From an uncultured delta proteobacterium (lineage in GTDB: Bacteria; Myxococcota_A; Polyangia; Polyangiales; Houyiibacteriaceae), in assembly GCA_963699755.1 (NCBI GenBank), contig CAVOVB010000001.1, positions 416,001 through 480,000 on the forward strand: DNA of 64,000 bases, given 5' to 3'. Both the position numbers and the translations under genes were made by a program. Of the stretch, positions 2,066 to 43,940 are shown in pieces (within the stretch, counting starts at the first letter, position 1; the number at the start of each line of letters is the position of its first letter). The notes under the pieces were generated by a model. The model did no database searches. It was given only the letters and a program-made list of their open reading frames with translations, and had not been told where the DNA came from.

Positions 2066-2211
2066 CAGGCTCAAGGTGAGAGCCGGTAGGCGTTTCGGAG
2101 CTTCTGACTCTTTCTTAGATCCAAACGGAGGTGTCGCGCGTCCCCTTCGGCGAGAACGGACTGTCGACAAGCGCGACCGTCCTGCGTAATGCAAAGGCCG
2201 GAGGAGCAACG

Positions 2212-3636
2212 ATGAGGACACAACGAGCACTGATCATATGGGCCGCGCTGGTCGTTGGGGCTGCCGACACGGAGGCCGGAGCGGACGACGCTGAGGGCGT
2301 GGCGCTCACCATCTATAACCAGGACTTCGGGGTGGTGCGCGAGAAGCGAACCGTGGACCTCAGGGAGAAGGTTGGGACGATTCGATTCACCGGAGTTGCC
2401 GCCCAGATCGACGGCGCCACCGTGCAGTTCAAATCACTCACCCATCCAGGCACCACGGTACTCGAGCAAAACTACGAATACGATCTGGTCTCCGCAGACA
2501 AGCTGCTCGACAAGCACATCGATCGGTCGATTGCGGTGCTGACCAAGGACGGCTCCCGATACGCCGGGACGCTTCTCAGCTTCGATCCCGCCCAGCTGGT
2601 TCTGCGCCAGGAGCAGAGCGTGGTGATGATCCAGCGCGGCGACAACGTTAAAGACATCCAGCTCGGCGCCTTGCCGGACGGATTGATCACCAAGCCGACG
2701 CTCGTCTGGAAGCTCGCCACGAAGAAGACCGGCCGTCAGTTGGTAGAGGTCGCCTACCAGACCGCTGGGCTCGGATGGCACGCGGACTACAACGCGGTCC
2801 TCAACGAAAAAGACACGGCGCTCGACTTGGGCGGATGGGTGACGATTGAGAATCACTCGGGCGCAACGTATGAGAATGCGCGTCTGAAGCTCATCGCGGG
2901 CGACGTGCGGCGTGTTCAACCGCCCATGCAGATGTATCGCAAGGACATGATGGCCGCCGAAGCCGCGTCCAGCTTCGAGGAAAAGCCCTTCTTCGAGTAC
3001 CACCTCTACACGCTCGGTCGGCAGACGACCGTCGCCGATAACCAGACCAAACAGGTCGAGCTCCTCAAGGCGGCAGACGTACCCGTAAAGACAGTGTTCC
3101 TCTACGACGGTGCACCCCAATACCGCTTCTACGGAGGACTCGTGAGTGACGCGGGCTACGGCAGCGAGCAGTCGAACAGCAAAGTCAGCGTCATTCTCGA
3201 GCTCACGAACTCAAAGCGAAACCACATGGGCATGGCACTGCCGAAGGGCAAGGTGCGGCTCTACAAGCGTGACGAAGCAGACGGGGCGCTCGAATTCATC
3301 GGTGAGGACGAGATCGACCATACGCCGAAGGACGAGACCATTCGGCTGCACATCGGGGATGCGTTCGACGTCGTGGGCGAGCGCAAGCGAACCGACTACA
3401 ACGTCGATACCAGTCGCCACGTCATCACCGAGAGCTTCGAGATCCGCCTTCGGAACCACAAGGACGAACCGGTCGAAGTGCTCGTGAAGGAGACGCTCTA
3501 CCGCTGGAACAACTGGGAGATCGTCAAGGCCTCGGACAAACACGAGAAGTACGATGCCAACGCGGCGCACTTCCGGGTCAAAGTCGGCAAAGACAGCGAG
3601 AAGGTCATTCAGTACACGGTGCGCTACACGTGGTAG
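2212..3636 (+). CDS. Secreted DUF4139/DUF4140 family protein
   Basis: RBS GGAGGAG; signal peptide; LTIYNQDFGVVRE, EQNYEYDL, WHADY, EYHLYTL, LPKGKVRLY; C-terminal YTVRYTW. Confidence 0.85.
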   Translation: MRTQRALIIWAALVVGAADTEAGADDAEGVALTIYNQDFGVVREKRTVDLREKVGTIRFTGVAAQIDGATVQFKSLTHPGTTVLEQNYEYDLVSADKLLDKHIDRSIAVLTKDGSRYAGTLLSFDPAQLVLRQEQSVVMIQRGDNVKDIQLGALPDGLITKPTLVWKLATKKTGRQLVEVAYQTAGLGWHADYNAVLNEKDTALDLGGWVTIENHSGATYENARLKLIAGDVRRVQPPMQMYRKDMMAAEAASSFEEKPFFEYHLYTLGRQTTVADNQTKQVELLKAADVPVKTVFLYDGAPQYRFYGGLVSDAGYGSEQSNSKVSVILELTNSKRNHMGMALPKGKVRLYKRDEADGALEFIGEDEIDHTPKDETIRLHIGDAFDVVGERKRTDYNVDTSRHVITESFEIRLRNHKDEPVEVLVKETLYRWNNWEIVKASDKHEKYDANAAHFRVKVGKDSEKVIQYTVRYTW

Positions 3637-3669
3637 GTCATCGAAGAGTTCTGGCACCCGGACAGTTTC

Positions 3670-3733
3670 AGAATCGCCAGAGCGCCAGATCTCTGTAGTT
3701 TCGATTGCGGAAAGGAACGCGTTTGTAGCGGCT
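3670..3733 (-). repeat. Degenerate inverted copy of the double dif/xrs-like element
   Basis: Minus strand AGCCGCTACAA-acgcgttcc-TTTCCGCAATC followed by GAAACTACAGA-GATCTGG (other copies have spacer GATCTAG). Confidence 0.45.
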
Positions 3734-3764
3734 ATCTTCGCCCATGCGGCGACGTGGGGCTGAT

Positions 3765-3821
3765 AGTCGACACAAACGCTCTTTCCGGTTCACGTCCCTT
3801 CGGCTCGTTGGTGCGACACAA
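3765..3821 (+). repeat. Double dif/xrs-like element, core 1 intact, core 2 degenerate
   Basis: AGTCGACACAA-ACGCTC-TTTCCGGTTCA-CGTCCC, near identical to the copy at 14295/15791; second D-like arm GTGCGACACAA at 3811. Confidence 0.75.
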
Positions 3822-3861
3822 CGCCGCCGTCGTGCTCTCCAGCGCCAGCAACGAGCTTCGC

Positions 3862-4167
3862 TCAGAAGCGCTCCGGCCGTAGCACCTGCACGTCGCCGAC
3901 GCTCAGCACACCAACGTGACGGTCGAGGAGTCGGTACAGGTCCTGGAGGGCTTTGTCGATTCTCTCGACGTCGCCAATCGCGATGACGACGACCATTTCC
4001 TGAGTGGTGGAGAGGTCGCCTTCGCTACGCCAGTGCGTGCTGCCGCCGAAGCCCGCCATCGCGGGCAGCACCGTGTATCCCGTGAGCTCGGCGTCCTCGA
4101 GGATGTTGCATGCCCGCGTGAGCGCCATTCGCTCGACGATCAGCTCGAGTCTGCGTTTGTCGTGCAT
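3862..4167 (-). CDS. sbtB: PII-like regulator SbtB
   Basis: 101 aa, KRRLELIVE..GYTV..GFGG..VQVLRPERF, directly downstream of sbtA. Confidence 0.8.
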   Translation of the reverse strand: MHDKRRLELIVERMALTRACNILEDAELTGYTVLPAMAGFGGSTHWRSEGDLSTTQEMVVVIAIGDVERIDKALQDLYRLLDRHVGVLSVGDVQVLRPERF

Positions 4168-6446: not shown

Positions 6447-6543
6447 AGTCGCTACCCGTCCTCCATCGAGGTTTGCCCGGACATCCAGCTCCATTAGCAC
6501 AGCGAAGCTGGGCGTTTGCGACGAGCCCGACGGGCTAAGAGAG
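6447..6543 (+). repeat. Degenerate full-length (97 bp) copy of the double dif/xrs-like element
   Basis: Starts AGTCGCTAC, ends TAG-CACAGCGAAGC plus 35-nt tail TGGGCG..GAGCCCGACGGGCTAAGAGAG; same length as the clear copies. Confidence 0.55.
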
Positions 6544-6634
6544 CGCCGGCCTGCTTGAGTCCCGCCGTTTCCTTATCCCTGGCTAGTCTGAGCGTTTTCG
6601 CTTGCGCGTGGCACACTCGAATGGTAGTGAATTC

Positions 6635-6667: not shown

Positions 6668-8125
6668 ATGACCCCTTCAGGACAGCGGAAAGTCTTGGTT
6701 TTCTTGGCAGTGTCCGCGTCCTTCGCCGGCTGCGGGGGCGGCGTCAACGATGGCGGAGAGACCCCGACCACTTACAGGTTCGAGCGCAGCGAGGAATCCA
6801 CCGTCGCCTACCTCGGTCAGAGCACCCGACAGCTGCTGATCAAGGACCTGGTCGGGCTGATGAAGGAGATCAGCGCCGAGGTGCTAGGCGGCCAGAACCT
6901 CGAGCGCTACGACACGCCGGAAGAGGTCGTGGCGTTTCTGACGCCGCTCTACGAGCTGGGCGGATTGGCGGACCCGAGTCGCGCGATTCCCGACCTCGTC
7001 GCCGAGGGGGATACGACGCTGCAGAGCACGTATGCAGACTTCAACGATGCCAACCTGCAGGAGAAGCTCGCCGGGAACGACGCCGTCACCGACCACGCCG
7101 ATTGGAACGGCGGAGATTTCGTCGGATGGAAGACGTCCAACTTGGTGATCGATGCCCAGGGAAACCGGGCCGCTCCGCAGACTCCCGAGTCGCTCTTGCT
7201 CGGGTTGTTCTGGACCTTCGCGACTCAGGCCTCGGGCGCGGCGACGGGCAGCTTCCCGATCGACGCAGCGACTCCACTCTACTTGACCCCCGACGGGCTC
7301 GATCTCACTCAGCTCCTCGAGAAGTTCCTACTGGGCGCGGTCAATTTCAGTCAGGGCACGGACGACTACCTCGACGATGACATCGACGGCAAGGGCTTGC
7401 TTTCGGCAAACGAGCTCGACGGAGACAACCCGTACACGACGCTCGAGCATCAATGGGATGAGGCCTACGGCTATTGGGGAGCGGCGCGCGACTACAGCGC
7501 TTACACCGACGAAGAGATCGCGGCCGCTGGCGGCCGATCCGATTATCAAAACGGTTATCACGACACAAATGAGGACGGCTTCATCGACCTTCTGAGCGAG
7601 CTCAACTTCAGCGCCTCGGTCAACGCGGCCAAACGCGACCTCGGCAGCGCCCCTAAAGCCCGCACCGACTTCACGGGGCAAGCAGACCTCGCATTTCGAG
7701 CTGGACGCGCCCTCATAAGCGCCGCGTACGAGGCAGGCACGCAGGTGGACCTGGCCGCACTCCAGGCCGAGCGCGACACCGCGGTCCTCGCATGGGAAAG
7801 GGCCTACGCAGCGACGGCCATCCACTACATCAACGAAATTTTGGGCGACATGGACGCCATCGGAGGCGAGGACTACAGCTTTGCCGACCACGCGAAGCAT
7901 TGGTCCGAGCTCAAGGGGTTCGCGCTCGGCTTTCAGTTCAACCCTCGGTCGCCGATGAGCGACGAGGATTTCGCCGCCCTTCACGCAGCAGTTGGAGACT
8001 CGCCAGTCGGCGCCTCGGCGAGCGGTCCCGTCGACAACGAGGCGTATCGAGCACAACTCCTCGATGCGAGAAACGGAATTGGAGATGCTTATGGTTTCGA
8101 TGAAGCGAACGTCACCTCTTGGTAG
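6668..8125 (+). CDS. DUF4856-family acidic lipoprotein (imelysin-like, iron uptake)
   Basis: Lipobox FAGC; VAYLGQ, QLLEKFLLGAVNFSQG.DDYL, LEHQWDEAYGYWG, AIHYIN, HAKHWSELKGF. Confidence 0.8.
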   Translation: MTPSGQRKVLVFLAVSASFAGCGGGVNDGGETPTTYRFERSEESTVAYLGQSTRQLLIKDLVGLMKEISAEVLGGQNLERYDTPEEVVAFLTPLYELGGLADPSRAIPDLVAEGDTTLQSTYADFNDANLQEKLAGNDAVTDHADWNGGDFVGWKTSNLVIDAQGNRAAPQTPESLLLGLFWTFATQASGAATGSFPIDAATPLYLTPDGLDLTQLLEKFLLGAVNFSQGTDDYLDDDIDGKGLLSANELDGDNPYTTLEHQWDEAYGYWGAARDYSAYTDEEIAAAGGRSDYQNGYHDTNEDGFIDLLSELNFSASVNAAKRDLGSAPKARTDFTGQADLAFRAGRALISAAYEAGTQVDLAALQAERDTAVLAWERAYAATAIHYINEILGDMDAIGGEDYSFADHAKHWSELKGFALGFQFNPRSPMSDEDFAALHAAVGDSPVGASASGPVDNEAYRAQLLDARNGIGDAYGFDEANVTSW

Positions 8126-9299
8126 GGTAGCGATCCTACTCGCGCTCGGCACGGCCGTCGTGAGTTGCAGCAGCGATGGCTCGACCGGCGGCGGCGGGAC
8201 TGGCGGAGACATGGGACGACGCGGCGAGGTGCTGGCAGCCCTCGGCGAGAACGTCGTGCTGCCACTGATCGAACGGTTCGCAACGGAGGCGGCGGCGCTC
8301 GAAACGGCGCTTGCGGGCGCCACGACGGACGCCGGCGGCCGCGATGCCGCGCAGAGCGCATGGCGAGAGGCGATGAGCATCTGGCAGGAGCTCGAGATGA
8401 TTCAGCTCGGCCCGCTCGGCTCGAGCCTCAGCGTGATGGGCGGGCAGGATCTGAGGGCGCGCATCTATTCGTGGCCGCTTCTCAATCTCTGCGAGGTCGA
8501 TCGGCAAACGATCGGAGAAAGCTACGACGACCCCGACGCGCTGGCACAGATCTCGGGCGCCCCGATCGGTCTGTGGGCGATCGAGTATTTGTCGTTCACC
8601 GACGACCCGGGCAACAACTGCGCTCCCTTCGACCCGATCAACCAGGAGGGCACCTGGGAATCGATGGCCGACATGGTCCCCGAGCGGCGGCTCACCTATG
8701 CCGCTTCGCTCTCCACGTTGGTCCGTCGTCGGGCTGAAGAGCTCGTCGACGCCTGGTCACCCGCTGACGGCAACTTTCTCGAAGAGCTCAGCAATCCGAC
8801 CCGCAGCGGCTCGGTCTATCGCACTGCGCAAGAGGGGTTGAACGCGATCTCGGATGCGTTGTTTTATCTCGACAGGGAAACCAAGGACATGAAGCTCGGC
8901 GCGCCGTTGGGGATCACCGGCTGCTCGGCCGCGCAATGCCCAGAGGCGCTCGAGTCACAGTGGGCGCTTCGATCCAAAGAGCACGTAATCGCCAATCTCC
9001 GCGGCTTCGAGCTCTTGTTTCTCGGAGGTGACCCAGACGCCGACGATCTCGGCTTCGACGACCTGTTGCGAGACATGGGCGCGGACGGCGTCGCGGACGA
9101 CATGGCAAGCGCGCTGACGGCGGCTATCGCCGCGACCGAGGAAGTTCCAGGAACGTTTCGTGACGCATTGACACAGAACGAAGCAGCGATGACGACGGCG
9201 CACACTGCGCTGATATCCGTCACCGACATCCTCAAGTCCGAGTTTCTTTCGGTTCTCGATCTCGAGGCGCCCGACCGAGCCGCGGGCGACAACGACTGA
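8100..9299 (+). CDS. Imelysin (peptidase M75-like) family lipoprotein
   Basis: Lipobox VVSC; QSAW..W..LE..QLGP, IYSWP, GLWAIEYL, C-terminal GDND. Confidence 0.85.
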   Translation: MKRTSPLGRVAILLALGTAVVSCSSDGSTGGGGTGGDMGRRGEVLAALGENVVLPLIERFATEAAALETALAGATTDAGGRDAAQSAWREAMSIWQELEMIQLGPLGSSLSVMGGQDLRARIYSWPLLNLCEVDRQTIGESYDDPDALAQISGAPIGLWAIEYLSFTDDPGNNCAPFDPINQEGTWESMADMVPERRLTYAASLSTLVRRRAEELVDAWSPADGNFLEELSNPTRSGSVYRTAQEGLNAISDALFYLDRETKDMKLGAPLGITGCSAAQCPEALESQWALRSKEHVIANLRGFELLFLGGDPDADDLGFDDLLRDMGADGVADDMASALTAAIAATEEVPGTFRDALTQNEAAMTTAHTALISVTDILKSEFLSVLDLEAPDRAAGDND

Positions 9300-10723
9300 T
9301 GCTCCGCTCGCTTCAAAGAAGGCTGCTCGAGCCTCGCGACGCTGCCTCCTTGGCGGCGTTTCGTTTTCTCTTCGGCGCTATTCTCTGCGTGAGCTCGGTT
9401 CGTTTCCTCTGGAACGGCTGGGTCGAGCGCTTCTACGTACAACCGACGTTCTTCTTCAAGTACTGGGGCTTCGAATGGGTGCGCGTCCTACCAGAGCCCT
9501 GGATGACCGCGGCCTACGTCGCGATGGCGGTGCTCGCCGCATTCGTCGCGCTCGGGTTCCTTTATCGTTTCTCGATCGCCGCGCTGTTCCTGCTGTTCAC
9601 GTACGTGGAGCTCATCGACGTCACCAACTACCTAAACCACTACTACCTCGTCAGTCTCCTCGGATTTCTGATGTGCTTCTTGCCGTTGCAACGCGCCTAC
9701 TCGATCGACGCGTGGCTCCGGCCGGACCGATTCGAGCCCGTGGTGCCGGCCTGGATGCTCTACCTGATGCGCTTTCAGATCGGGGTCGTCTACTTCTACG
9801 CCGGAATCGCGAAGCTTCAGCCTGACTGGCTCCTGCACGCGCAGCCTCTCGGAATTTGGCTCGCCGCGCGAGCGGAGACACCGCTCATCGGAGCGCTTCT
9901 CACGTGGCCCACGATGCCCCACATCATGAGCTGGGCGGGCTTCTTGAACGACACCTTGGTCGTCCCGTTTCTTCTCTGGCGTAAGACGCGACCGTACGCC
10001 TTCGCCACGGTCGTTTTCTTTCACTTCTGCACACACCTGCTCTTCGTCATCGGCGTGTTTCCGTTCTTGATGGTCAGCGGAGCGACCTTGTTCTTCGATC
10101 CGGATTGGCCGAGAAAGCTCGCCTCGCGCTTGGGCGCATGGGTCGGCCGTCCGATCACGCCAGCCGTCGGCTCTGGCGAGCCTCGAAGTGAGCCGGCGGG
10201 ACGTTGGTCGACGGCGGCCGCGGCGCTCGTGGCGGTTTACTGCCTCGTGCAGGCGGTCGTTCCGCTTCGGGCCCATCTCTACCCCGGAGACGTGCTCTGG
10301 CACGAGCAGGGGATGCGCTACTCCTGGCGCGTGATGGTTCGCGAGAAGAACGGAAGCATCCGTTACCGCGTCCGGTGGCGTGGAGCGCAACGCGAGGTCC
10401 AGGTCCCGCCGAGCCGCTACCTCACCAACCATCAGGAGCGGGAGACGTCCGGACAGCCCGACTTGATCCTTCAGCTCGCGCGCCGAATCGCCCGCGACTA
10501 CGAGGACCGCGGCCATGAGGACGTCGAGGTTCGCGTCGACGCGCTGGTGTCGCTGAATGGCCGGCGCGCCGCAGCCATGATCGACCCTGACGTCGATCTC
10601 GCGAGCGAGTCGGACACGCTCGCCATCATGCGTTGGATTGCACCCTCCCCTCCGGGCGAGCCTCTGCCTGCTTATCCCGACGCACGGAGGCTCGTAGTCC
10701 AGTCGAAGCGGATCGCGAGGTGA
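9299..10723 (+). CDS. HTTM-domain / vitamin K-dependent gamma-glutamyl carboxylase-like membrane protein
   Basis: SLAAFRFLFG, YLNHYYL, RFQIGVVYFYAGIAKLQPDWL, IGVFP, RYSWRVM, QPDLILQLA, VSLNGR..IDPDVDL. Confidence 0.9.
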   Translation: MLRSLQRRLLEPRDAASLAAFRFLFGAILCVSSVRFLWNGWVERFYVQPTFFFKYWGFEWVRVLPEPWMTAAYVAMAVLAAFVALGFLYRFSIAALFLLFTYVELIDVTNYLNHYYLVSLLGFLMCFLPLQRAYSIDAWLRPDRFEPVVPAWMLYLMRFQIGVVYFYAGIAKLQPDWLLHAQPLGIWLAARAETPLIGALLTWPTMPHIMSWAGFLNDTLVVPFLLWRKTRPYAFATVVFFHFCTHLLFVIGVFPFLMVSGATLFFDPDWPRKLASRLGAWVGRPITPAVGSGEPRSEPAGRWSTAAAALVAVYCLVQAVVPLRAHLYPGDVLWHEQGMRYSWRVMVREKNGSIRYRVRWRGAQREVQVPPSRYLTNHQERETSGQPDLILQLARRIARDYEDRGHEDVEVRVDALVSLNGRRAAAMIDPDVDLASESDTLAIMRWIAPSPPGEPLPAYPDARRLVVQSKRIAR

Positions 10724-13161
10724 GCAAACGGCGATTCAAGCGCGCTCGGGCAGGACTCGTGGCGCGACTGCTGGTCCTCGTGGTATTCGGCGTCGCTCCG
10801 CGGGTAGCGCACGCGGAAGAGCCCGAGACCCACCCGGAGACGGACGCCCGCGTCAGCGCCGACTCCAATGCTCGCGACGACGCCATGCTCGAGGAGGAGC
10901 TACAGTTACTCGAGGATCAAGTCTACGAAGACGGGGAAGGCGCGCCGCCGTCCGAGGGCGAAGGCGAGCCCTCGCCGCCGAGCTCGAAACCGGAACCGAG
11001 CTCGGCGGTACCCGAGCTCCGCGAAGTGACGGTTCGCTATCGGCCTCAGGACATCTTTCGCATGGGCGGCTCGGTGCAGGCGCTCGACCAGAAACAACTG
11101 CAGACCGTCCAGTACGATGATCCCAACGCGGTCCTGCTTCAGGTTCCCGGCGTCTACATTCGGCAGGAAGACGGTTTTGGCCTTCGCCCCAACATCGGTC
11201 TTCGGGGAACCAATCCCGACCGAAGCTCGAAGGTCACGCTGATGGAGGACGGCGTGCTCTTCGGCCCGGCGCCCTACTCGGCTCCTGCCGCTTACTACTT
11301 TCCGATGATGGCCCGAATCACCGGTGTCGAAGTCTTCAAAGGCCCGGCAGCGATTCTCTACGGCCCACAGACCGTGGCTGGTGCGATCAACTACCTGAGC
11401 CGCCCAGTGCCCGAGAAGCCGCGGGGGCAGGTCGATCTTTCGTACGGACGATTTCAGACCTTCCGCGGCCATCTGCACTACGGACGCCAGAACGACTGGG
11501 GGGGATTCATCGTCGAGGGCATTTACCTCGGCACTCAGGGCTTCAAAGAGCTCGATGGCGACTACGGCCGCGGCAACACCGGCTTTCAGCGGGGCGAGCT
11601 GATGGTCAAGGGCTTCGTCAACAACGACCTCGCATCGCATGCGTTCAATCGGCTGACCGTCAAGTTCGTCGGATCCAGAGAGAGCTCGAATGAAACATAT
11701 CTCGGCCTCACCGACGAGGACTTCGCCTCGAACCCCGACCGCCGCTATGCCTCGAGCCAGCTCGACAACATGCAGTGGTGGCGCACCGCGATCGATTTGA
11801 CCCACAACTTGGCCGTCGGCGATCACATCCTGCTCGAAACCACCGGATACTGGCGTAACTTCGATCGAACGTGGGAGCGGCTCAACCAGTTTCGAGATGG
11901 GACTCAGCTCCTCGACGTTTTGACCCAGCCGACGACACCGCCTCTGGACTCGTACTACCTCGTGCTCACCGGCGAGCAGAACTCGCCATCGGTGACTGGC
12001 GGAACCGACGCCCAGGACCTGATGGTCATCCGCAATCGACGCCGGTTCGTCGTGATGGGGATCCAGACGCGTCTTCGGGCGGATTTCAAGACGGGAAAGG
12101 TCCGTCACGAGATCGAGTCCGGCTTGCGATTTCACTACGACTCGGTGGACCGCTTTCAGCCCGAGCAGGGCTACCGTATGCAAAACACGCAGCTCGTCTG
12201 GGACGGGCTCACGTACGTCGACGATCCCGACCTGCTGATCGACGACAACAAGGGAGAGGCGCAGGCCCTGGCCGGTTACCTCGTCTACGGCCTCGAGATC
12301 GACGAGCTCGTCATCAAGCCCGGCGTGCGCGTGGAGTACATCCGCACGTTCTTCGAGGACGAGAGGAATGCGCCCGAGCTGGGCCGGGTCAGCGAAGACC
12401 CCCAACTCGTGTTCCTTCCGGGCATCGGCCTCCAATACACCATCTTCGAAGGCTTCGCGGTGCTTGGCGGGGTGCACCGCGGGTTCAGCGCCGTAACTCC
12501 GGGCAACCGCGAAACCACGGATCCCGAGCTATCGATCAACTACGAGGCCGGCTTTCGCTACGTCACGAGGGACGGAACCGGCTTTGGAGAAGTGATCGGG
12601 TTTTTCAACGACTACAACAACATCACGAGTGAGTGCACCCAGTCCGCCGGGTGTGATCCCGACCTCGTCAACCAACAGTTCAACAACGGGCGTGCCTTCA
12701 TCGGCGGGGTCGAGGTGATGGGAGGCTACACGGTCGCGCTTCCGCGCGAGCTGTCGATGCCGCTTCGAGTCGCATACACGTACACCAGTGCGACGTACCA
12801 AACGACGTTTGAGTCGTCCGATCCGACGATCGGCGACGTCGAGAAGGGCGATCCGATCCCCTACGTTCCCGCCCACGTGCTCAACGCCCGGCTCGGGTTC
12901 GAGAAGAGCTTCTGGGGTACCTATTTGATCGGGAACTACTTCGGGAAGATGGGGGAAGGCTTCGTTGGCTTGCAGCGGCTGCCCGACACCGAGAGTTACT
13001 TCATGTTGGATGTCGTCGGCCGCGTTCGCTTCGAACCCGTGGAGGCTTACCTTCGCCTTCAGAACATCACCAATGCGCGCGCGATCGTGTCCCGACGACC
13101 CTACGGCGCCAGGCCGACCGCGCCGCTCATGGTCCAGGTCGGCGTTCAAGTCACCTTCTAA
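10720..13161 (+). CDS. TonB-dependent receptor, FecA-like
   Basis: Plug VPGVYIRQEDGFGLRPNIGLRG, SAPAAYYFP, EVFKGPAAILYGP; C-terminal F; GTG overlaps the upstream TGA. Confidence 0.93.
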   Translation: MSKRRFKRARAGLVARLLVLVVFGVAPRVAHAEEPETHPETDARVSADSNARDDAMLEEELQLLEDQVYEDGEGAPPSEGEGEPSPPSSKPEPSSAVPELREVTVRYRPQDIFRMGGSVQALDQKQLQTVQYDDPNAVLLQVPGVYIRQEDGFGLRPNIGLRGTNPDRSSKVTLMEDGVLFGPAPYSAPAAYYFPMMARITGVEVFKGPAAILYGPQTVAGAINYLSRPVPEKPRGQVDLSYGRFQTFRGHLHYGRQNDWGGFIVEGIYLGTQGFKELDGDYGRGNTGFQRGELMVKGFVNNDLASHAFNRLTVKFVGSRESSNETYLGLTDEDFASNPDRRYASSQLDNMQWWRTAIDLTHNLAVGDHILLETTGYWRNFDRTWERLNQFRDGTQLLDVLTQPTTPPLDSYYLVLTGEQNSPSVTGGTDAQDLMVIRNRRRFVVMGIQTRLRADFKTGKVRHEIESGLRFHYDSVDRFQPEQGYRMQNTQLVWDGLTYVDDPDLLIDDNKGEAQALAGYLVYGLEIDELVIKPGVRVEYIRTFFEDERNAPELGRVSEDPQLVFLPGIGLQYTIFEGFAVLGGVHRGFSAVTPGNRETTDPELSINYEAGFRYVTRDGTGFGEVIGFFNDYNNITSECTQSAGCDPDLVNQQFNNGRAFIGGVEVMGGYTVALPRELSMPLRVAYTYTSATYQTTFESSDPTIGDVEKGDPIPYVPAHVLNARLGFEKSFWGTYLIGNYFGKMGEGFVGLQRLPDTESYFMLDVVGRVRFEPVEAYLRLQNITNARAIVSRRPYGARPTAPLMVQVGVQVTF

Positions 13162-13230
13162 CTATTTGAATTTACGCGGGATTCAAGCTCTTCAATTGAG
13201 CCGGCCCCGGAAGATGGCGGCGGGGTTGTT

Positions 13231-13249
13231 GAAGATGATTATCAATGTC
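13231..13249. promoter_or_regulatory. Putative Fur box upstream of tonB
   Basis: GAAGATGATTATCAATGTC, 15/19 to the Fur consensus. Confidence 0.65.
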
Positions 13250-13263
13250 AGAGTTCTCTCGCG

Positions 13264-14007
13264 ATGAACCCCCGCTCGCCGAGCTTTCTGCTCTCTTCCA
13301 TCGTGGTTCACGGTGCGTTTTTCTCCGCGTTGGCGGCCACGCCCACCGAGGTGGAACCGAGCCCCATGAGCCGTGCGATCGAGTTCATCACGATCACCGA
13401 GCATGGTGGCGGACGCCTCGGAAACGACGAAAGCATCGGAGACGCGGCGAAGGTTCCCGAGACGCCACCCGAACGGCTCTTCCGAAAGGTGGAGCCGAAA
13501 CCGAAACCCTCACGTCCGGTCGCTGAGACCGCCCCGAAACCCGAGGCGCCGTCGGTTCCGAACGAGCCCATCGCGTCCGGCGCGCAAAGCGAGGGAGTCA
13601 CGGAGAATGCGACCGCTGCAAACGGCGATGCCTCGGCAATGGGCTCGGCGGGCACCGACCCGGAAGCGACGAAGTCGGGTGTGGGCAGTGGCGCGGAAGG
13701 CGTCGATCGACGGTCCGCGCTGCGTGCGTGGCTCAAGGAGGTCCAGCGCGAGGTCAACAAGATCGCCACGCGCAACTATCCACGCTCGGCCCTCCGCATG
13801 CGACTGGAAGGCAGGTTGCGCCTCGGCGTGACGATCGGCCCCGACGGAAAGATTCTCGGGGTCCGAGTTCTTTCGTCTTCGGGTCACAGCGTGCTCGACG
13901 AGTCGGCCACGGCCTCCGTCAACGCGCTCCACATTCCGCCGCCGCCCGAGGCCCTCGGCTGGCGCGCACGCGAGATCTCACTTCCAGTTCGGTACGCGCT
14001 GGATTGA
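13264..14007 (+). CDS. tonB: Energy transducer TonB
   Basis: N-terminal TM with SxxVH, Pro-rich linker, YPRSALRMRLEG..SSGHSVLD..LPVRY. Confidence 0.88.
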   Translation: MNPRSPSFLLSSIVVHGAFFSALAATPTEVEPSPMSRAIEFITITEHGGGRLGNDESIGDAAKVPETPPERLFRKVEPKPKPSRPVAETAPKPEAPSVPNEPIASGAQSEGVTENATAANGDASAMGSAGTDPEATKSGVGSGAEGVDRRSALRAWLKEVQREVNKIATRNYPRSALRMRLEGRLRLGVTIGPDGKILGVRVLSSSGHSVLDESATASVNALHIPPPPEALGWRAREISLPVRYALD

Positions 14008-14308
14008 ATCGAGCTGAAACGAGTCCCGGCTCGAGATCGAACCCGCGGCCAACACGAGGACCCGATCCCCGTCAATCGTTCGTGACGCCTGAGTCCGGGA
14101 TGGCTGCTTCGCTGATACCGGCGCCTCGTGCCTCGGGCTCCCCGGCGGTCGCGTCCCCGGAATCCTTGCATCCAGGACCGCCCTCGATCTTCACGGCATC
14201 GTGCTCGCAGGTGATCTTGTCCGATTTGGCCCTACTGGTGATGAGAAGGCGCATCCGACCGAGTAGCCCCCCTGCTCCCGCCGAGTCAGAGCATAGTCGA
14301 CACAAACG

Positions 14309-15780
14309 CAATGCCGTTCACTTAGGAGTCCCGCGGCGGTTTCCCTTTGCGGTTTGAAGGATACTGACTGGCTTTTCGCTTGAACGCTCTAGGGTAGCGG
14401 CGCGAGGAGCGCCGCTCTGGCAGGAGGAAAAGCGACAGTTGTTGCCGCAAGCGTTTGAGGTGCGTGGGAATGGCTCCCGGCTGAGCCACTGCGCACCAGA
14501 GAAACTCGTCACGAATGAATCGGTGGGACGCGATGAAGCTGATCCTCAGAGGGCTTACGTTCGCTTCCTTTGCGACCTGCTCCATCTCGCGACGCACGAG
14601 GTTGTACGCTAGAAGGACGCCCCACAATTCCTGCCGCACTCCCTGCGGAGTTTGACTTCGCATCGGGACGTTGCGCTCGAGCATGTCGGTCTTGAGCTCA
14701 CCGAAGCCCATCTCGATTTCCCATCGCTCGTGATACAGAGCGATGATCTCTTTTGCCGGATACTTCGTTGGGTCCAGCAACGAGGTCAGCAGCATTTGCT
14801 CCTTTCCACCTTTCATCCGATAGCGGATACGACGCACCCTCCAATGCAAGGGCAGCGTCGGCTCCTTTGCTCGTGTGGCCGCACATATCGTAAACTCCAC
14901 GAGCTCATCGGTGTGGGTGGTGCGCGTGACCACTCTGCCCGTTGTATCCGAGCGTGCACGAACCAGAAAATGGCGATTGGCGCCACCTTGGTGCAACGGG
15001 TGCAACACGTTGGAGGCCTGAAACCCGCGGTCCACAATCGTCAGAGAATCGTCGGGAATCTCATCCCAAAGTTGCCGCGCATAGGTGTGCTCGCCCTGCT
15101 TGCAAGGTCCAAAGGCGACCGCAGCAAGCATCTGTGAACGAAGCGCCATCAACGCAACCGCTCGCATCACGGGATATCCGCTGCCTTCTGGTGCGAGGCG
15201 ACCGACAATGAGTCCGAACTCGTGTCGGTTCGCCTCTGAATCGGGAACACGCAACGACGTTCCATCCACTGCATACAACGCCAGACCACGCCACCGACCC
15301 CGATCGGCGCTTTGATGAGCCCACTTGTTCGCGCACTGCTCAAACAGCCACCGCACAGGCTCTTGTCCCAGCCGCGCTCGAGCCTGCGAAATGGCGCTCG
15401 GAGCCACCGTTACGTGACCCGAGCCGGGCAACGCCAGGTCGAGCTTGTTCACCACGTCCGTGATCGACCGGTCCTTGAACAGCGCCATGCCGAGCACCAA
15501 CCACACCACTTGCTCCGCCGGTAGCCGTCTGCGTCTCAGCGTCGCCGTGCCTGTCGCACGCAGCGCCTCTTCAATCCACTCTCGCGGGAGGTGCTTGCGA
15601 AATGCATCGAGCTCCGGCGGTCCACCTAGACTCGCACAACCAGTGACAATCTCCTGCAACATGGGCCAACCCCCCTCGGTGCTGGCCAGTCTGATCTCAT
15701 CGGCGACCGATTAACAGAACCTTTCCACGCCGACTTCCCAAAGCATTTCGATCACTTCCATCACTAACTGATCGGCATTG
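14309..15780 (-). mobile_element. IS4-family insertion sequence, complete, with 10-bp target duplication
   Basis: TIRs CAATGCCGTTCACTTAG / CTAACTGATCGGCATTG; direct repeat GACACAAACG at 14299-14308 and 15781-15790. Confidence 0.95.
14322..15662 (-). CDS. IS4-family DDE transposase
   Basis: [37 protein letters not shown] (YREK motif). Confidence 0.95.
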
Positions 15781-15826
15781 GACACAAACGCCCTTTCCGG
15801 TTCGCGTCCCTGGCGACATACCATCT

Positions 15827-16725
15827 GATATGTAGCGACCTGTCTACTGAGAAGATGGGGTTTGCTTTGTTTCCGTTGTGGTTGGTTGAACGGCTCAAAG
15901 AAGCTGGCGAACAAAGCGACGGTTGACCAATCTGATATTCGTGGATCGACCCGAAGGCCGCCGACATGGTCATCATCCGTCGGGAGCTCGCTCAGACTAG
16001 TGGCGCGAGTTGGGCACGGCCGTGCCTATCGCATAGATGTTTCGAGGCTTGTCCTTCCCGTGGGGATGCTTGCCAGCTTCTTTGAACCGTTCAACAAGGA
16101 GGCCCTGCGTGTTCATCTCGGCTTCGCGCTGCCGCCCGACGGCCCACACAAACCCGGCGAGCTCTCGACTCATCGCGGTCACCGCGGTAAGCATCGCCAC
16201 CCCGCGAAGGCTTTGCAGGGCCAGGACCAGCTCTTGCATCCGTGGCGGCGCCTGCTCGACCGCGCGGTCGAGCGCCTTGTCGAGCCGCGCCACGCGCTCG
16301 GTGGCATGCTCGACTTCGTTCTTGTAGTCCACAAACGTCTCCTCTTGCGCCGTATGGTCGAACACCTGCGAATCGAGCCAACGCCAATGCGCCTGGCCCC
16401 AGGCTTGGCTCTGGATATCTCGACGGCGGCCCAGGCGAAGCAAGAATTCCCCAGCCGGTTCGCCCTGCCGAGCTTTTTCATCGCCTTGCGAATCGAGTCG
16501 GGCTGATTCGGAATCGTCCCTACCCCGCGACCACGACCACGGCCGCCTCCTTCGGCCACCGCCACCGTGATCGTGTCCGCGTGCACATCCAGTCCCACGT
16601 ACGTCCAGCTTGCTGTATGGTTCGACATGACCGACTCCCTTCGTATGTAGCTCTGCGCTACGGTCTTTTCCGATTCGCGGCGTAAACTACGGTCTGCGAT
16701 CGGAGTCGGTCGCTACATCTTGACT
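15827..16725 (-). mobile_element. IS110 family (IS1111-type) element with internally deleted transposase and intact-looking downstream non-coding end
   Basis: Sub-terminal IRs ATGTAGCGACC (15830-15840) / GGTCGCTACAT (16708-16718), 3 and 7 nt from the ends; CT core on both sides; transposase fragments YVGLDVH (from 16628) and RELAGFVWA. Confidence 0.85.
15885..16095 (-). ncRNA. Putative bridge/seek RNA of the IS1111-type element
   Basis: 23/24-bp inverted repeat (15885-15908 / 16072-16095) encloses ATATCAG (matches the element end junction) and CATCTA / ACTAG (match the target CATCTAGT). Confidence 0.55.
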
Positions 16726-16743
16726 AGTACCGCGAAATTCGGC

Positions 16744-17791
16744 TGTAAGCCCAATATAGAAATGTCGGGTTTGTGCCAGATTCAAATGTCGGGGTTACCC
16801 GCCCCCGATGGACTCAGGGCTCGTCGTCATGAGCCGGCGCGAGATCGAGCGAGCGCATGTGATGCGCGCGATTGAGGAGCGCCGGCTGACCCAGAAACAA
16901 GCCGCTACGCAGCTGCGGTTGAGCGTGCGTCAGATCGAAGAAGGCATTCGGAAGACTCGTGCGCAGCGTTGCAAACGCATTCAGCAGCCGCGTCACCGTC
17001 GCGATCGCACGGGCGAGCTTGTGCAGATCGACGGCTCGGACCACCACTGGTTTGAGAACCGCGGTCCGAAATGCGTGCTCCTAGTCTACGTCGACGACGC
17101 GACGGGCAAGCTCATGGCGCTCCGGATGTGTGAGTCGGCGTTGAGCTACTTTCACGCGACGCGCGGCTATCTAGAGCGTCACGGCAAGCCGGTGGCCTTT
17201 TACAGGGACAAAGCGGGGGTGTTCCGCGTAATGCCAAGAGTCCCAGGGCCGGCGACGGCTTCACGCAATTTGGCCGCGCCATGACCGACCTCAATATCGA
17301 CGTGATTTGCGCCAATACGCCCGCGGCCAAAGGCCGCGTGGAGCGCGCACACCAAAGGCTTCAAGACCGGCTCGTTAAGGAGCTCCGGCTGCGCGGCATC
17401 TGCACGATGGACGACGCCAATCGGTACTTGCCCGAGTTCATCGAGGACTACAATCGGCGCTTCGCACGGGCCGTCCGAAAACGCCAACAACAAGAAGAAC
17501 AGGAGCTCGTCCGCTCCGCCAAGAGCAAGCGCGAGCAGCGCATCGTGCGCGACCGCTTCGCGGACCGGCTGCCGCCTCCGGGACCCTGAGCCGACCGGCC
17601 CGCGCGAGGCCTACCGACGCCCTCTCAAGCCATCCGCCCTCTTGCCCCCACGGCGACGTTCCCCCAGACGCACCGACGTGTTCGCCCTGCAGAAACCGCC
17701 GTCAGACGCAGCTTCCGGCCGGCCCGCACCCGGCTCCTCCCCGACATTTCAATCTTGGAGAACTAGCCGACGCCTCAGTTTGGTTTTGACA
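16744..17791 (+). mobile_element. IS1202-family (ISNCY) element, degenerate transposase
   Basis: TGT...ACA ends with internal AAATGTCGGG repeats; GELVQIDGSDHHWFE, VDDATG, AKGRVERA..QDRLVKELRL; flanks TCGGC / T-GGC. Confidence 0.85.
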
Positions 17792-18012
17792 TGGCGCTCA
17801 CCTTGAGCCCGATGGGCTAAGAGGCGGGTCGTCGATCGCGAGCAGCCGAGCTCCTCGTTTCCAAGCTTCGGCGACGCCGCCGGCGGGTTCGAGGTCTTCA
17901 TGTCCGAGGGGTATAGCCATGTGGACGTCGTGTCCGCCGAAGACGACGAGACCAACAACTTCGTCGCGCCGCTACTCGCGTTCATCGAGCGCTACCTGGA
18001 GTAGTTGCAGCG

Positions 18013-18822: not shown

Positions 18823-18881
18823 TCGCGCCTGATAGCATGGAGCCGGGCCGGCAACCCGAGGCCTCTAGGACCTACGAGAGC

Positions 18882-18939
18882 AACAAACCTTCCAACAAAC
18901 CTTCCCAGGTTGAAACCAACGAACCTTCCCAGGTTGAAA
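18882..18939 (+). repeat. Tandem 17-18 bp repeats left of the RAYT gene
   Basis: AACCTTCCCAGGTTGAAA at 18898 and 18922 plus partial AACCTTCC at 18886. Confidence 0.85.
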
Positions 18940-18978
18940 AGAAGGAAACCCGCGGGGGCAGCGACCGAAGAGTAGGGC

Positions 18979-19866: not shown

Positions 19867-20063
19867 CGAACGGACGCCCACAGCCCTGAGCTGGTCGACC
19901 CCTTGCGAGTCGTGCGTACGCATCCACCCTTCGCAACCGTCTTCTGTTCGGAGGACGGTTTCGAGCGTTCGCCAAAGTGCCCGGAGCGCTGTGCGGCCCG
20001 CTTACTGCGCTCGCTGCCGTCGCAAGCAGTAGGGGACCGGCCCCCGCCAAACGGACTCGTTAC

Positions 20064-25183: not shown

Positions 25184-26059
25184 AGCCGGGAGCTCGCCCG
25201 ATTCCGACGTTTCTCGAACGGTTTCGCGGACAGGTATCGATGAGAACTGGACTTCCCCCGCCCCTGTAGACACCTCGAAGCCAAACGCGAGGTGCTTAAG
25301 CTTCGAGCCGAGCTTCGGCGCGCGCAAGAAGAGCGGGACATATTAAAAAAGCCGCTGTGTACTTTGCGCGAGAGCCCGAGCAAAGTACGCATTCATCGAA
25401 GCGCACCGCAAGGAGCACCGCATCCAGACGATGTGCCGGGTGCTCGGCGTGGCGCGCAGCGGGTTCTACGCCTGGCTTCATCGGCCGCTGTCGGATCGAG
25501 CGCGGCAGGACGGCCGTTTGCTCGAGCTCATTCGCGCCTCGTGGTTTGCGAGCGGGGGTATCTATGGGAGCCCCCGCATGTGGGGCGACCTTCGCGAATC
25601 GGGCGTTCGGTGCAGCAAGAAGCGCATCGCCCGCATCATGAGAGAGCACAAGATCCGGGCCATTCGTGGCTACAAGCGCCCGCGTCACCGCCCTGGGCGT
25701 CCCGCCGCACTCGCACCCAATCGGTTGCAGCAGCAGTTCACGGTGAGCCGTCCCGACGAAGCCTGGGTGACCGACATCACCTACCTCCGCACATGGCAAG
25801 GGTGGCTCTACTTGGCCGTCGTGATCGACCTCCACTCGCGCCGCGTCGTCGGATGGTCGATGAAGTCGTCGCTACACCGCGAGCTCGTACTCGATGCGCT
25901 CTTGATGGCGGTGTGGCAGCGCAAGCCTCGGCAGCACGTCATCGTGCATTCCGATCAAGGCACGCAATACGGCAGCGATGAGTGGCAGCGTTTCTGCCGA
26001 GCGCACCGGCTCACCACGAGCATGAGCCGCCGCGGCAACTGCTACGACTGTGATGATGC

Positions 26060-29283: not shown

Positions 29284-29534
29284 TTTTCGGCACTTGCTGT
29301 CTCCTGCTGGCGAAAAACACGCTGCCAAAGCTGAGCTCGTTGAACGGCGTTCGGAAATGGGAAGCAGACGAAGGAGATCCGACCGACGTTGACGGAAGCG
29401 AAGGCCGATGGGAGGGCTAAGCACCAAGCCGTCGTGAGCCGACCGGGCACCCGAGTTGCTCGGCGAAAGCCCTCCCAGCCTCGTTGCCGGCGGCGTTAGT
29501 GCTGATTCGGGCGCATATGGGAGAGCTGGCAGAT

Positions 29535-29631
29535 AGTCGATATGAACGCCTTTGAGGTTCACGTCCGGCGCGACATGAGATCTAGTACCGCGTAATTCAG
29601 ACTTCCGACTGGGCCCAATCGGCTAAGAGAG
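29535..29631 (+). repeat. Double dif/xrs-like element
   Basis: AGTCGATATGA-ACGCC-TTTGAGGTTCA-CGTCCG-GCGCGACATGA-GATCTAG-TACCGCGTAAT plus 35-nt tail ending GGCTAAGAGAG. Confidence 0.85.
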
Positions 29632-29780
29632 CGGGGCACCCCAGCGCCTCCGGTAGAGCTGGACCGATTCAGGAGTAGACGCGACCTGAATGTCGGTCGA
29701 AAAGCCCGGATAGCGGATGAATGGCGGTTGCATGCCGACGAGGTCGAAGTGCTCGACTACTATCCGTAAAGGAGAAAACA

Positions 29781-31975: not shown

Positions 31976-32995
31976 ATCTCACTTCACCCCGACGATCGGC
32001 GCCTCGAACGAAAGGAGCTTCAACAAATTGTGGAAAGACTCGTGGATACTCTGGGGTTTTCCGAACACCAATACATCGCCGTGCGTCACAGCGACACCGA
32101 CCACGAGCACATCCACGTCGCGATTAACAAGATCCATCCCGAGACCTTTCGGATTCACTCCCCCTCCTGGGACCACCAGAAGCTATTCACCGGGGCCCAA
32201 GCCCTCGAGCGGGAGCTGGGCCTGACACCCATGCGGTCGAGGACGCGCGAGAGCGAGAGGGTCCCGCAACGAGCCGCGGACTGCGAAGCGCACCATGGAA
32301 CCGACAGCTTCGCGCGCTGGGCCCGGGAAAAGCTCCGACCTGCTCTTCGTGCAACTGAACTACCAAGCTGGGATGACCTGCATGGCGTCTGCGGCCGTTT
32401 TGGCGTCGTGATTCGGCCTCACGGCAACGGACTTGTATGTGAGGATGTGGATCGAGGTGTCCGTGTGAAAGCCTCTTTCGTCGCTCGCGAGCTCAGCAAG
32501 AATCGGCTCTGCCAACGGCTGGGACCTTTTCAACCGGCGTTGGAGCGCCAGTTAGAAGCGGCACTCCAGGCGCCCCTTCGGTACTCGCCCATGCCAACCA
32601 GGGCACCCCAGAGCTTGTGGAAGGAGTACGAACAGAGCCTCGACCAAGCGCGTAAGCAGCGCCAAGAGGCATGGGCCGGCTACCGAGACTCTGCCTCTCG
32701 CGAGCGTCAACAACTGGGGCAGAAGTACCGCCTCCAACGAAGGGTCATCAATGCCCTACCCGTCTCAGTTCGCGATCGAAGCCAGCTGCTGCGACAACTC
32801 GCGCTTCGACAAGCCATCGAAAGCCGGACCCTCGAGCGAAAGCTTGCGATCCAACGGAAGGCGATTCGAAAGACCTGGCATCCCGGCACCTGGCGGCACT
32901 GCATAGCGAGGCGCGCCGCCGAGCGCGACGCCCGCGCGATGCGGCTTCTGAGGCGACTGGAACGGGGCCGCTCCAACGAAGGAAGGGAGTTGTGA
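31976..32995 (+). pseudogene. Conjugative relaxase (TraI/MobA MOB-P-like), 5' truncated by the IS
   Basis: HQYIAVRHSDTDHEHIHVAINKIHP (3H motif), LERELGL, VKAS..LGPF. Confidence 0.8.
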
Positions 32996-42040: not shown

Positions 42041-42937
42041 GTGGCCCCCAGGCAAACCATTCTCATCGCCGGAGCGACCGGATCCGTTGGCGGTGCTGCC
42101 GCTCTCGCGCTTTCGAAAGGCGGCGCACGAGTCGTGCTGCTCGGGCGCAGTGCTCGAAAGCTGAACGCAAAGGCGGACTCGATGCGCGAAGCGCTATCCG
42201 ACATCGGCATCGACAACCCCAGCGGAGACATAGCCACACTGACAGTCGACTTCTCCGATTTGGAGTCCGTGAGAGCGGCAGCCGAAGAAGCTTTGTGCCG
42301 CTTTCCGGCGATCGATGGGCTGGTACTGTCGGTTGGCGCCCTCGTCCAGAATGGTCCTCACGTGCTCCCCAGTGGACACGAGGTGATGTTCGCCACGAAT
42401 GTCATGGGGCCGTTCCTCTTCACGCAGCTGCTGGTGGAGAGATTGCAGCAATCAGATGGCCTGGTTCTCCACGTGATCGCGCCGTTCTGCGAAAAAGTCG
42501 ACTGGGACGACCTCGAGAGCATCGATCATCACAGGTCGATGACCGCATTCAACAGGACCAAGACCTGCAACCGTGTAATTGCAGGAGAGTTGGCTCGTCG
42601 GTATACGGGAAAGATCTCCTCAGTCGCGTTCGATCCTACCTTCGTCATCGATAAGTCAGACCCTGACTTGAAGAAGAGATGGCCGACTGGGTTAACAGGC
42701 CTGGCGTGGCGAATCATGGCCGCGCTCCGTGCGAAATCCCCCGCTGTAGCAGGTGAGCCGATTGCGAAACTGATGCTCTCGCAGCGAGATCGAAGGTCGA
42801 TCAATGGAGCGCTGTTTGTTCTTGATCAACGGGCAAACGAGGCAGACATGGCGATGAACGATGAAGTGCTGGGAGCACGGCTGTGGGAGAGACTAGAGGT
42901 GCTCACGGAAGCGCCAAGCGGTCGACCGTCCGTCTAG
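42041..42937 (+). CDS. Short-chain dehydrogenase/reductase (retinol dehydrogenase-like, atypical)
   Basis: AGATGSVG, VDFSDLESVR, FATNVMGPFL; FNRTK in place of YxxxK. Confidence 0.8.
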   Translation: MAPRQTILIAGATGSVGGAAALALSKGGARVVLLGRSARKLNAKADSMREALSDIGIDNPSGDIATLTVDFSDLESVRAAAEEALCRFPAIDGLVLSVGALVQNGPHVLPSGHEVMFATNVMGPFLFTQLLVERLQQSDGLVLHVIAPFCEKVDWDDLESIDHHRSMTAFNRTKTCNRVIAGELARRYTGKISSVAFDPTFVIDKSDPDLKKRWPTGLTGLAWRIMAALRAKSPAVAGEPIAKLMLSQRDRRSINGALFVLDQRANEADMAMNDEVLGARLWERLEVLTEAPSGRPSV

Positions 42938-43095
42938 ATTTGGCGCGCTCATCGGTCGGTGGCCGTGTGCGCTTCGGCGATTTCGCGGGTGAGGTTCAGG
43001 ACGCCGTTGACCACGATCTGTGCGCCGGGCCCGACGCCGAGCGTCCAGTACCGCCTGAACCATTTGCGTGCGTCCTCGAACGACCTTCGGAGCCT

Positions 43096-43197
43096 AGGAA
43101 GAACAAACGCCCTTTCCGCTTCGCGCGCCGCAAGTCGACATAACAAGTTGATACCGCGAAATTCGGCGCTCATCGTCCTCCCGATGGGCCAAGAGAG
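43096..43197 (+). repeat. Double dif/xrs-like element
   Basis: AGGAAGAACAA-ACGCCC-TTTCCGCTTCG-(9)-AGTCGACATAA-CAAGTTGA-TACCGCGAAAT plus 35-nt tail TCGGCGCTCATC..GGGCCAAGAGAG. Confidence 0.85.
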
Positions 43198-43309
43198 GCA
43201 CCGGCGGCAAGGGTTCTGAGCGTGTGAGCTCTGCACCTCTTTGATCACTCGTGGTCCGAAGAAATGGGGCAGGTCACCCGGCGCTCCGAAGCGCGACCTT
43301 TGTCTCCTA

Positions 43310-43798
43310 CTATTCGCGCCAGACTCGATAGAAATGGACGTTCTGCCTTCGGTTCACGACGTGACAGCGTGTCAACCCATCGTCGCTCAGCGAAAGAGCA
43401 GCGTCCAGATTGGCAGTGTCGCGCAAGACCTTCTTGTCAGCGGGGAACACTGCCTTGAAAAACCCAATGGGAGCATTTTCAATCGGGCTCGGAGCGAACA
43501 CAAAGCGCGTCTTCGTCTGAACGGGGTTCTTGGTTTCGAACCGCATCCAGGCGTCGTAGTGCTCGAGCCACATCGAACCGGCCCCTGCCAACCCCGACAC
43601 CTCGGATGATGACGTCTCGAACTCGTAATCGAAAAGAGATTCTGCAGAGACCTCAAAACCTCGACCGAAGACATAGCCAAAGATCCGAGTTCTGTTCATG
43701 TAGAGCAGAGAAATCGCAATCACGACAGCGAAAGAAATCGCTCCGATCTTCTTCTTGTCTCGACTGATCATTGCTTGATGTCTCAAAGGTTCAGGCAA
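43310..43798 (-). CDS. Hypothetical membrane-anchored protein between two repeat elements
   Basis: Lower-GC ORF with N-terminal TM; start may be MISRD near 43774. Confidence 0.55.
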   Translation of the reverse strand: MPEPLRHQAMISRDKKKIGAISFAVVIAISLLYMNRTRIFGYVFGRGFEVSAESLFDYEFETSSSEVSGLAGAGSMWLEHYDAWMRFETKNPVQTKTRFVFAPSPIENAPIGFFKAVFPADKKVLRDTANLDAALSLSDDGLTRCHVVNRRQNVHFYRVWRE

Positions 43799-43842
43799 GC
43801 AACCGAACCCGCGATAGCGCGGCTGCTGTCAGCTCATAGCAT

Positions 43843-43940
43843 AGCAACTACAGAAGCCCTCTCCGCACGCGTCACCACGCGACATAAGATCTAGTACCGC
43901 GCAATTCGGCGCTCATCTTGAGCCCGGTGGGCCAAGAGAG
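43843..43940 (+). repeat. Double dif/xrs-like element
   Basis: AGCAACTACAG-AAGCCC-TCTCCGCACGC-GTCACC-ACGCGACATAA-GATCTAG-TACCGCGCAAT plus 35-nt tail TCGGCGCTCATCTTGAGCCCGGTGGGCCAAGAGAG. Confidence 0.85.

Follow-up and report, generated by a model that had tools for sequence, protein, structure and literature searches.

What is the short noncoding repeat that recurs between genes in this stretch of DNA, and does it act as a joint at which genes are acquired and exchanged? The stretch, hereafter the window, comprises 64,000 nucleotides of an uncultured delta proteobacterium of the Houyiibacteriaceae (positions 416001-480000 of contig C1 in genome G000; 5.35 Mb, 62.5% GC, 11 contigs, assembly flagged with 9% contamination). 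A sequence-only reading had described the repeat as a tandem double dif/xrs-like element punctuating gene modules in a candidate Xer-driven cassette system. We followed this up in G000 (contigs C1, C3, C7 and C11 below) and in a comparison set of 55 genomes (G labels), including 24 congeners. On balance, and with slightly better than even confidence, we read the repeat as a composite site for XerCD at which cassettes are joined, located in mobilizable islands that integrate at tRNA genes and run from mobC-relaxase to xis-int.

Alignment of 23 copies bore out the fixed layout proposed at the outset (arm, 6 bp, arm, 6 bp, arm, 7 or 8 bp, arm, 35-nt tail) in a repeat of 105 bp. By sequence, the repeat has one dif-like core (core 2), preceded at 34 bp by a XerD-like half-site and followed on its XerC side by a 35-bp palindrome. 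Two full cores were rejected: core 1 has a XerD-like arm matching at 7-8 of 11 positions and no outer XerC arm, and 'double dif' is overstated because its second arm is XerC-like in the inner 5-6 bases only. The repeat is not a chance pattern, since an iterated profile gave 56 matches at E<1e-3 in G000 (60 at E<0.5), whereas the reversed genome reached no better than E 0.36; in relatives, which the earlier reading had also proposed to scan, the repeat was recovered in 23 of 24 congeners and in none of 16 other families. Within the window, the clear copies announced at 29535, 43096 and 43843 are full elements, and the interrupted copy at 14295-17823 is a single element split by three nested insertion sequences (Table 1). 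Among the partial or degenerate copies, those at 3765 (head only) and 6447 (degenerate but full) stood, those at 5186 and, inverted, at 3670-3745 are weak, with a loose alignment and no profile match, and alignment gave no support for the one at ~2160. One copy, inverted and tail-only at 2052-2085, had been overlooked. Copy and junction alignments revealed neither terminal inverted repeats nor target duplication of the kind that defines a miniature inverted-repeat transposable element, no Rfam family matched the element, and the whole element folded no better than shuffled sequences, without the covarying fold of an attC-type site.

The candidate host dif is a single dif-like site at C3:687011 in G000, matched once per genome in 20 of 24 congeners and also in one other family (control, 0); G021 has two matches, both at contig ends. 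Most change among congener dif sites lies in the spacer. Core-2 arms are identical to the host dif at 8-11 of 11 positions, some XerC arms being exact. Spacers measure 7 bp in 15 copies and 8 bp in eight, and the spacer end next to the XerC arm reads NAG in 20 of 23. The suggested comparison with host dif is thus borne out for the arms but not for the spacer, which never has 6 bp, and the definition of an xrs by 11-bp XerC and XerD arms like those of the host dif around a 6-8 bp spacer applies to core 2 only. Genes for both recombinases are present in the host: XerD at C3:404.4-405.2 kb passes its cut-off, and XerC at C5:26.0-26.9 kb scores 324 of 335 bits. Evidence that C3:687011 marks the terminus is weak: the FtsK orienting polar sequence (KOPS) octamer points toward the site in 6 of 7 matches, and GC skew over 20 kb on each side has, if anything, the wrong sign.

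Insertion sequences lend independent support to the dif-like character of core 2, because an IS1202-family end is placed at the repeat as it is at xrs and at the host dif. According to published accounts, elements of the IS1202/ISAba32 type target xrs and place their left end 5 bp away from the XerC arm (10.1101/2022.12.17.520857; PMC10132070). The same spacing is seen in the split copy of the window (Table 1), at C7:43.15 kb, where the TGT start of an element carrying an ISNCY/IS1202 transposase gene (E 1e-143) lies exactly 5 bp beyond the XerC arm, and in a C11 copy flanked on either side by a perfect 5-bp duplication. IS1202-family left ends also lie 5 bp outside the XerC arm of the host dif in G000 and G021. 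A search for the arm followed by 5 bp and TGT returned 65 matches in 32 of 55 genomes (control, 7), of which eight coincide with dif and the others are counted as pattern matches only; without 13 matches to one unrelated G066 repeat, 52 matches in 31 of 55 genomes were left (control, 7). That G066 repeat is a different sequence, present in 13 copies, that resembles the XerC arm plus TGT. Separately, we observed a host dif bearing an IS1202-family end at L011:1440-1530, and likewise at dif in eight genomes. The spacer of core 2 in the split copy is occupied by an IS110/IS1111-type element, of which an intact homolog has the same position in G005 and more copies exist in G000 and G023; the IS4-family end found in the head of the split copy also abuts a repeat copy at C1:1554.9k, and another IS110-like element (family assigned by eye) lies at a head start. 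A single repeat is therefore struck by IS1202-, IS1111/IS110- and IS4-family elements. Because the arms match host dif and the IS1202 geometry is the same, Xer involvement is supported for core 2, where XerC/XerD binding and recombination are predicted.

Copies in G000 are clustered (C1:376-460 kb, 1543-1587 kb and 1929-1949 kb; C3:8-39 kb; C7:11-66 kb; a few smaller groups), and the arrays sit in islands whose terminal genes are xis-int, next to a tRNA gene. One complete island of 7.2 kb consists, in order, of a tRNA-Leu fragment, a NikA/RHH gene, a relaxase, a class-B element, cargo, a class-A element, cargo with a ParE system, an integrase and tRNA-Leu. Here, class A denotes the ordinary array copies and class B a variant with a different head, directly after the relaxase stop. 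At least 28 relaxase matches among those listed, in 21 genomes, run through this variant (counted by hand, with five candidates scored per genome). Neighbouring copies, also counted by hand, were in direct orientation in 30 of 41 G000 pairs, with each split copy taken as one, and in 37 of 48 pairs in relatives (20 regions chosen around matches), so that, in architecture only, the islands show the platform site plus polar array of an integron. Other arrangements include inverted, head-to-head pairs with 60-200 bp between them (L065:1308-1564, L031:900-1292 and window 3670-3800), almost empty units of two elements 11-85 bp apart (L063:1391-1604, L182:14490-14726 and L042:15491-15776) and two islands whose convergent integrases meet at tRNA-Leu, which the arrays on both sides face (L047:9453-10677). 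The same relaxase unit, with identical element and flanks, occurs twice in G000 (C1:1583350-1588672 and C7:430601-435813), pointing to a recent duplication or strain mixture.

The window, too, carries an island end, with a tyrosine integrase at 47714-48634 beside tRNA-Lys and integrase remnants around 20160 and 25030, which contradicts the initial statement that it lacks a dedicated recombinase. The remnants (20164-20480 and 24830-25210) are each followed by a tRNA-like 3' fragment and represent scars of earlier island integrations; the tRNA-Lys locus carries arrays also in G014 and G062. As the arrays are polar toward xis-int, the island tyrosine integrase could be thought to recombine the sites in place of XerCD, making a true integron analogue. 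We consider this very improbable: the arms match host dif, IS1202 strikes them as it does dif, the target of the integrase is the tRNA 3' end, and no integron integrase exceeded its cut-off, the best IntI-family match (88.7 bits versus 265) being XerD.

The repeat is narrowly distributed. Among 300 genomes of the phylum, real matches were confined to the genus (12 of 14 genomes), with only short matches at E>1e-3 outside it, and viral contigs gave no match. The comparison set of 55 genomes contains ~1000 copies in all. Of the 110 stretches with the core pattern, 80 were listed, and 79 of these carried titles of Myxococcota, Polyangiales or deltaproteobacterial metagenome-assembled genomes, the last being an 'uncultured bacterium'. 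Sequence identical to parts of the window occurs in a sediment run (X1). The congener G008, 100% complete, has no BLAST match to the element and no IS91-like gene; dif and the insertion sequence end at dif are present.

We next consider the outer ends of the element, where the capture step can be mapped because joins between site and captured DNA are readable against intact alleles. Seven sharp junctions to foreign DNA, often mid-gene, were identified in this way (picked from BLAST ends falling at an element, not drawn blind). The tail in G061 is joined to the middle of a gene that is intact in G006 (96-99% identical), and that in G014 bluntly to a fragment 98-100% identical to the host's own gene. 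The conserved gene cut in the window (Table 1) has an intact host copy at C1:1256-1258 kb (77% identical), and a fourth tail junction was located to within 5 bases. Head junctions are equally sharp in G061/G063 and G011/G007 and less clear in G000/G042; in one extra candidate, homology begins a few bases past the tail. In 6 of 7 cases, G precedes the cut in the intact allele, twice within the triplet GAG, which also ends the tail. None of the seven junctions showed target duplication. Several cargo genes begin near a head and read away from it, as might be expected of a promoter, operator or terminator repeat spread by gene conversion, yet the mixed gene orientation, the mid-gene junctions, the dif identity and the IS1202 geometry leave this explanation barely credible.

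The junctions also bear on whether the element is a non-autonomous mini-transposon of the rolling-circle or another HUH type, carrying an xrs and inserting whole after a G-rich triplet with the IS91-like gene as helper; read-through or later Xer recombination would then part the two flanks. The sharp ends fit this idea, and the element shares with IS91/ISCR the absence of target duplication, the capture of adjacent DNA, which in IS91 occurs by one-ended transposition, and a terminal palindrome (PMC13181058). Moreover, the last tail is often followed by an IS91-like gene that closes the array, and three out of four such genes in G000 lie just past a tail, reading toward it. However, in none of four tests did we find a whole-element insertion keeping both flanks, as the remaining half of the cut gene had no element next to it in the same genome; in these tests, the host retained an intact gene copy, and the island piece was closer to another species in three of four. 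Copies are further confined to islands, many arrays lack the IS91-like gene, including all of the many copies in G023, which has none, and the CTTG/GTTC-type tetranucleotide of the family was not found at element ends or in junction contexts, although the IS91-like unit carries it at its far end. An oriIS inside the tail was rejected, as the junctions map elsewhere. Overall, we judge the mini-transposon explanation quite unlikely.

A breakpoint at the core is visible for one cargo gene, which is shared together with its head by four loci whose identity ends at the XerD arm/spacer. These loci continue with three different tails and neighbours and one insertion, and a fifth homolog has no element. 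Conversely, nine loci share a downstream IS91-like flank, mostly with one tail subtype, behind nine different heads. The 43.3-kb orphan unit of the window recurs in one contig of run X8 behind another tail (joint 43940 to 43276), followed by an element and then by unlike DNA, that is, a different right neighbour. The prediction that breakpoints would map to the spacer holds for the set of four loci, but seven further breakpoints lie at the outer ends. Contig joints between 43125 and 43875/43892 can be paralogs.

Several observations weigh against a cassette joint. The crossover mapped to the core in that one set of loci only, the far end of its cargo gene lacks an element, and the spacer accompanied the head in only part of the copies. 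One-ended sharing is common, with elements often missing from the far end of shared cargo. The DUF4139, sbtAB, iron-operon and MscS genes of the window were rejected as fixed, bracketed modules, since homologs in relatives mostly lack a flanking repeat: by profile search, no element was found within the flanks retrieved for DUF4139 (4 loci), the iron operon (7), MscS (3) or sbtA (5), nor in 5 of 6 loci for the 29.7-kb gene (L078 has one ~370 bp off), nor for the 43.3-kb orphan, whose nearest copy is 1.3 kb away. Identity to these homologs is mostly 70-87%, and they could be native copies. At least 26 listed relaxase matches, including that of the window, end before a class-B site, some at contig ends or insertions, and about a quarter of neighbouring copies are inverted. 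Assembled contigs of the runs (low-share runs left out) contained no excised circle or clean deletion junction, and Acinetobacter xrs pairs are not excised even when direct (PMC11705084). The tail (33 nt in the covariation test, 77% paired) was rejected as a selected single-strand hairpin, its covariation not exceeding that of shuffles. Finally, the nearest candidate for a capture enzyme is the IS91-like protein, despite the missing tetranucleotide and its absence from G023.

Table 1. Repeat copies, insertions and island features of the window (positions within the 64,000 nucleotides)
Feature	Position	Strand	Details
Captured fragment of conserved gene	1455..2054	.	90% identical to G015 copy
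Tail-only inverted copy	2052..2085	-	Outer end cuts conserved gene at 2054
Head-only copy	3757..3821	+	
Degenerate full copy	6447..6546	+	Between sua5 and iron-uptake operon
One element split by three insertions	14290..17825	+	Insertions nested
Pieces of split element, head side	14290-14308; 15781-15826	+	Head start; rest of head and XerD arm
Pieces of split element, tail side	16724-16743; 17792-17825	+	Spacer end, XerC arm and 5 bp; tail
IS4-family element	14309..15780	-	In head; 10-bp target duplication
Decayed IS110/IS1111-type element	15827..16723	-	Inside core-2 spacer; subterminal inverted repeats
Decayed IS1202-family (ISNCY) element	16744..17791	+	TGT left end exactly 5 bp outside XerC arm
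Full element	29530..29633	+	7-bp spacer 29579-29585; XerC arm 29586-29596
MobP-type relaxase remnant	32030..32995	+	Class-B variant follows this gene elsewhere, not here
Full element	43091..43198	+	Core 2: XerD arm 43133-43143, 8-bp spacer, XerC arm 43152-43162; tail to 43197
Smallest cassette-like unit	43198..43837	-	Between two direct copies
Full element	43838..43941	+	XerD-like half-site 43843-43853; palindromic tail 43906-43940
Core 2 of 43838 copy	43877-43905	+	XerD arm 43877-43887, 7-bp spacer, XerC arm 43895-43905
Conserved island right arm	47062..47135	+	Hairpin then CTTG; also terminates IS91-like unit in other islands
Island tyrosine integrase	47714..48634	+	Stop in its 5' part; overlaps tRNA-Lys; array tails face it
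tRNA-Lys(CTT)	48571..48645	-	Integration site

Within the smallest unit, the orphan open reading frame at 43310-43798 had no Pfam or NCBIfam match. The iron-uptake operon at 6668-14007 encodes DUF4856, imelysin, HTTM, TonB receptor and TonB proteins, and a G010 block is 85% identical to it. A Y1 HUH (RAYT-like) transposase gene (18979-19866, within 18865-20110) is framed by stuttered inverted repeats and matches NCBIfam REP_Tyr_transpos at E 1e-11, below the cut-off.

From the anatomy, dif identity, insertion sequence geometry, polarity and junction positions described above, we infer how a cassette joint could work. For capture, a second enzyme, for which there is a candidate only, would link foreign DNA to a tail or head at its outer end; the target is not duplicated, the join falls mostly just after G, and the pieces are often gene fragments from the host or congeners. 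For shuffling, host XerC would let two copies trade a single pair of strands at the spacer end next to the XerC arm, the nearly invariant NAG, and replication or repair would complete the exchange, as at cer/mwr (PMC2699498) or CTX (PMC3442271). Such an exchange would replace the whole sequence to the right of the core and could insert or delete units that are directly oriented. Class B, right behind the relaxase, may serve as a resident, attI-like platform and class A as attC-like cassette ends, with the head half-site and tail as putative accessory parts; the islands would carry the arrays onward by integrase and conjugative mobilization. Of the Xer-driven gene acquisition first proposed, the Xer-like core and, through polar direct arrays in tRNA islands and outer-end capture junctions, the acquisition role persist, but the paired functional cores do not. 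A bolder version, which we offer tentatively and with more doubt than confidence, is integron-like capture without a cassette recombinase of its own: a 105-bp bifunctional site whose outer ends would take up random chromosomal or incoming DNA and whose core would let host XerC stack the pieces behind the platform site of a mobilizable island.

The cer/mwr sites likewise have a 6-8 bp central region plus a flanking region (PMC2699498), and XerC-first exchange completed without XerD catalysis is the likely route here as there. These resemblances, in spacer length and XerC-side flank, raise the question of whether the repeat simply resolves dimers of the excised island circle, as a cer-like site, with arrays as by-products of accretion and Xer cointegrates, as proposed for Acinetobacter plasmids, and without discrete cassettes. 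Class B is indeed a fixed backbone part of the islands, and many shared segments bear an element at one end only. However, there are more class-A copies than islands, the spacing from one copy to the next is 10 bp to a few kb with no intervening int or relaxase, and the sharp outer-end junctions are left unexplained, which makes this account unlikely, though not negligible. In addition, cer is single-copy with ~180 bp of ArgR/PepA accessory DNA, whereas here a 35-bp XerC-side palindrome and a XerD-like half-site opposite accompany dozens of copies; no cer-type region of ~180 bp was found, conservation stopping 35 bp past the XerC arm.

The pdif/xrs modules of Acinetobacter plasmids and chromosomes resemble the cassette joint proposed here in having dif-like sites between small gene modules and host XerCD (PMC11705084, PMC12907356, 10.1101/2022.12.17.520857), and chromosomal dif modules are therefore already known (PMC12907356). 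IS1202-family elements strike their sites, too, at a distance of 5 bp outside the XerC arm. In contrast, those sites are 28 bp long with 6-bp spacers, mostly inverted and with no accessory sequence found, whereas the present ones are 105-bp composites with 7-8 bp spacers (6 bp in 0 of 23) and sharp outer-end junctions, mostly direct and polar, in relaxase/integrase islands that also have a platform variant. Integrative mobile elements exploiting Xer (IMEX), such as the CTX phage, also form direct tandem arrays by single-strand-pair Xer exchange (PMC3442271), but integrate at chromosomal dif, while the arrays here lie away from dif and differ from it in the spacer.

Integrons combine an attI platform site with a polar, direct attC array of small cassettes and toxin-antitoxin cargo. 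All of these have counterparts here, as do strikes by IS1111-type elements. The latter are documented at integron attC sites (PMC11187229). Unlike integrons, the islands use dif-like double-stranded cores, not long attC hairpins, and gene fragments or operons, oriented either way, are frequent among their cargo. The system resembles a hybrid of dif module and integron, yet belongs to neither. Searches of full texts, among which most subscription papers are absent, turned up neither this composite site nor mobilizable islands with polar arrays of direct xrs, nor any Xer module from Myxococcota.

Together, these findings extend Xer-based modules from Acinetobacter to Myxococcota, in another geometry that is direct and polar, with a long spacer, compact accessory parts and a platform site. 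To our knowledge, the origin of the recombination sites in cassettes and dif modules is poorly known, and cassette birth is still open for both. If true, the reading as integron-like capture would show cassette birth directly.

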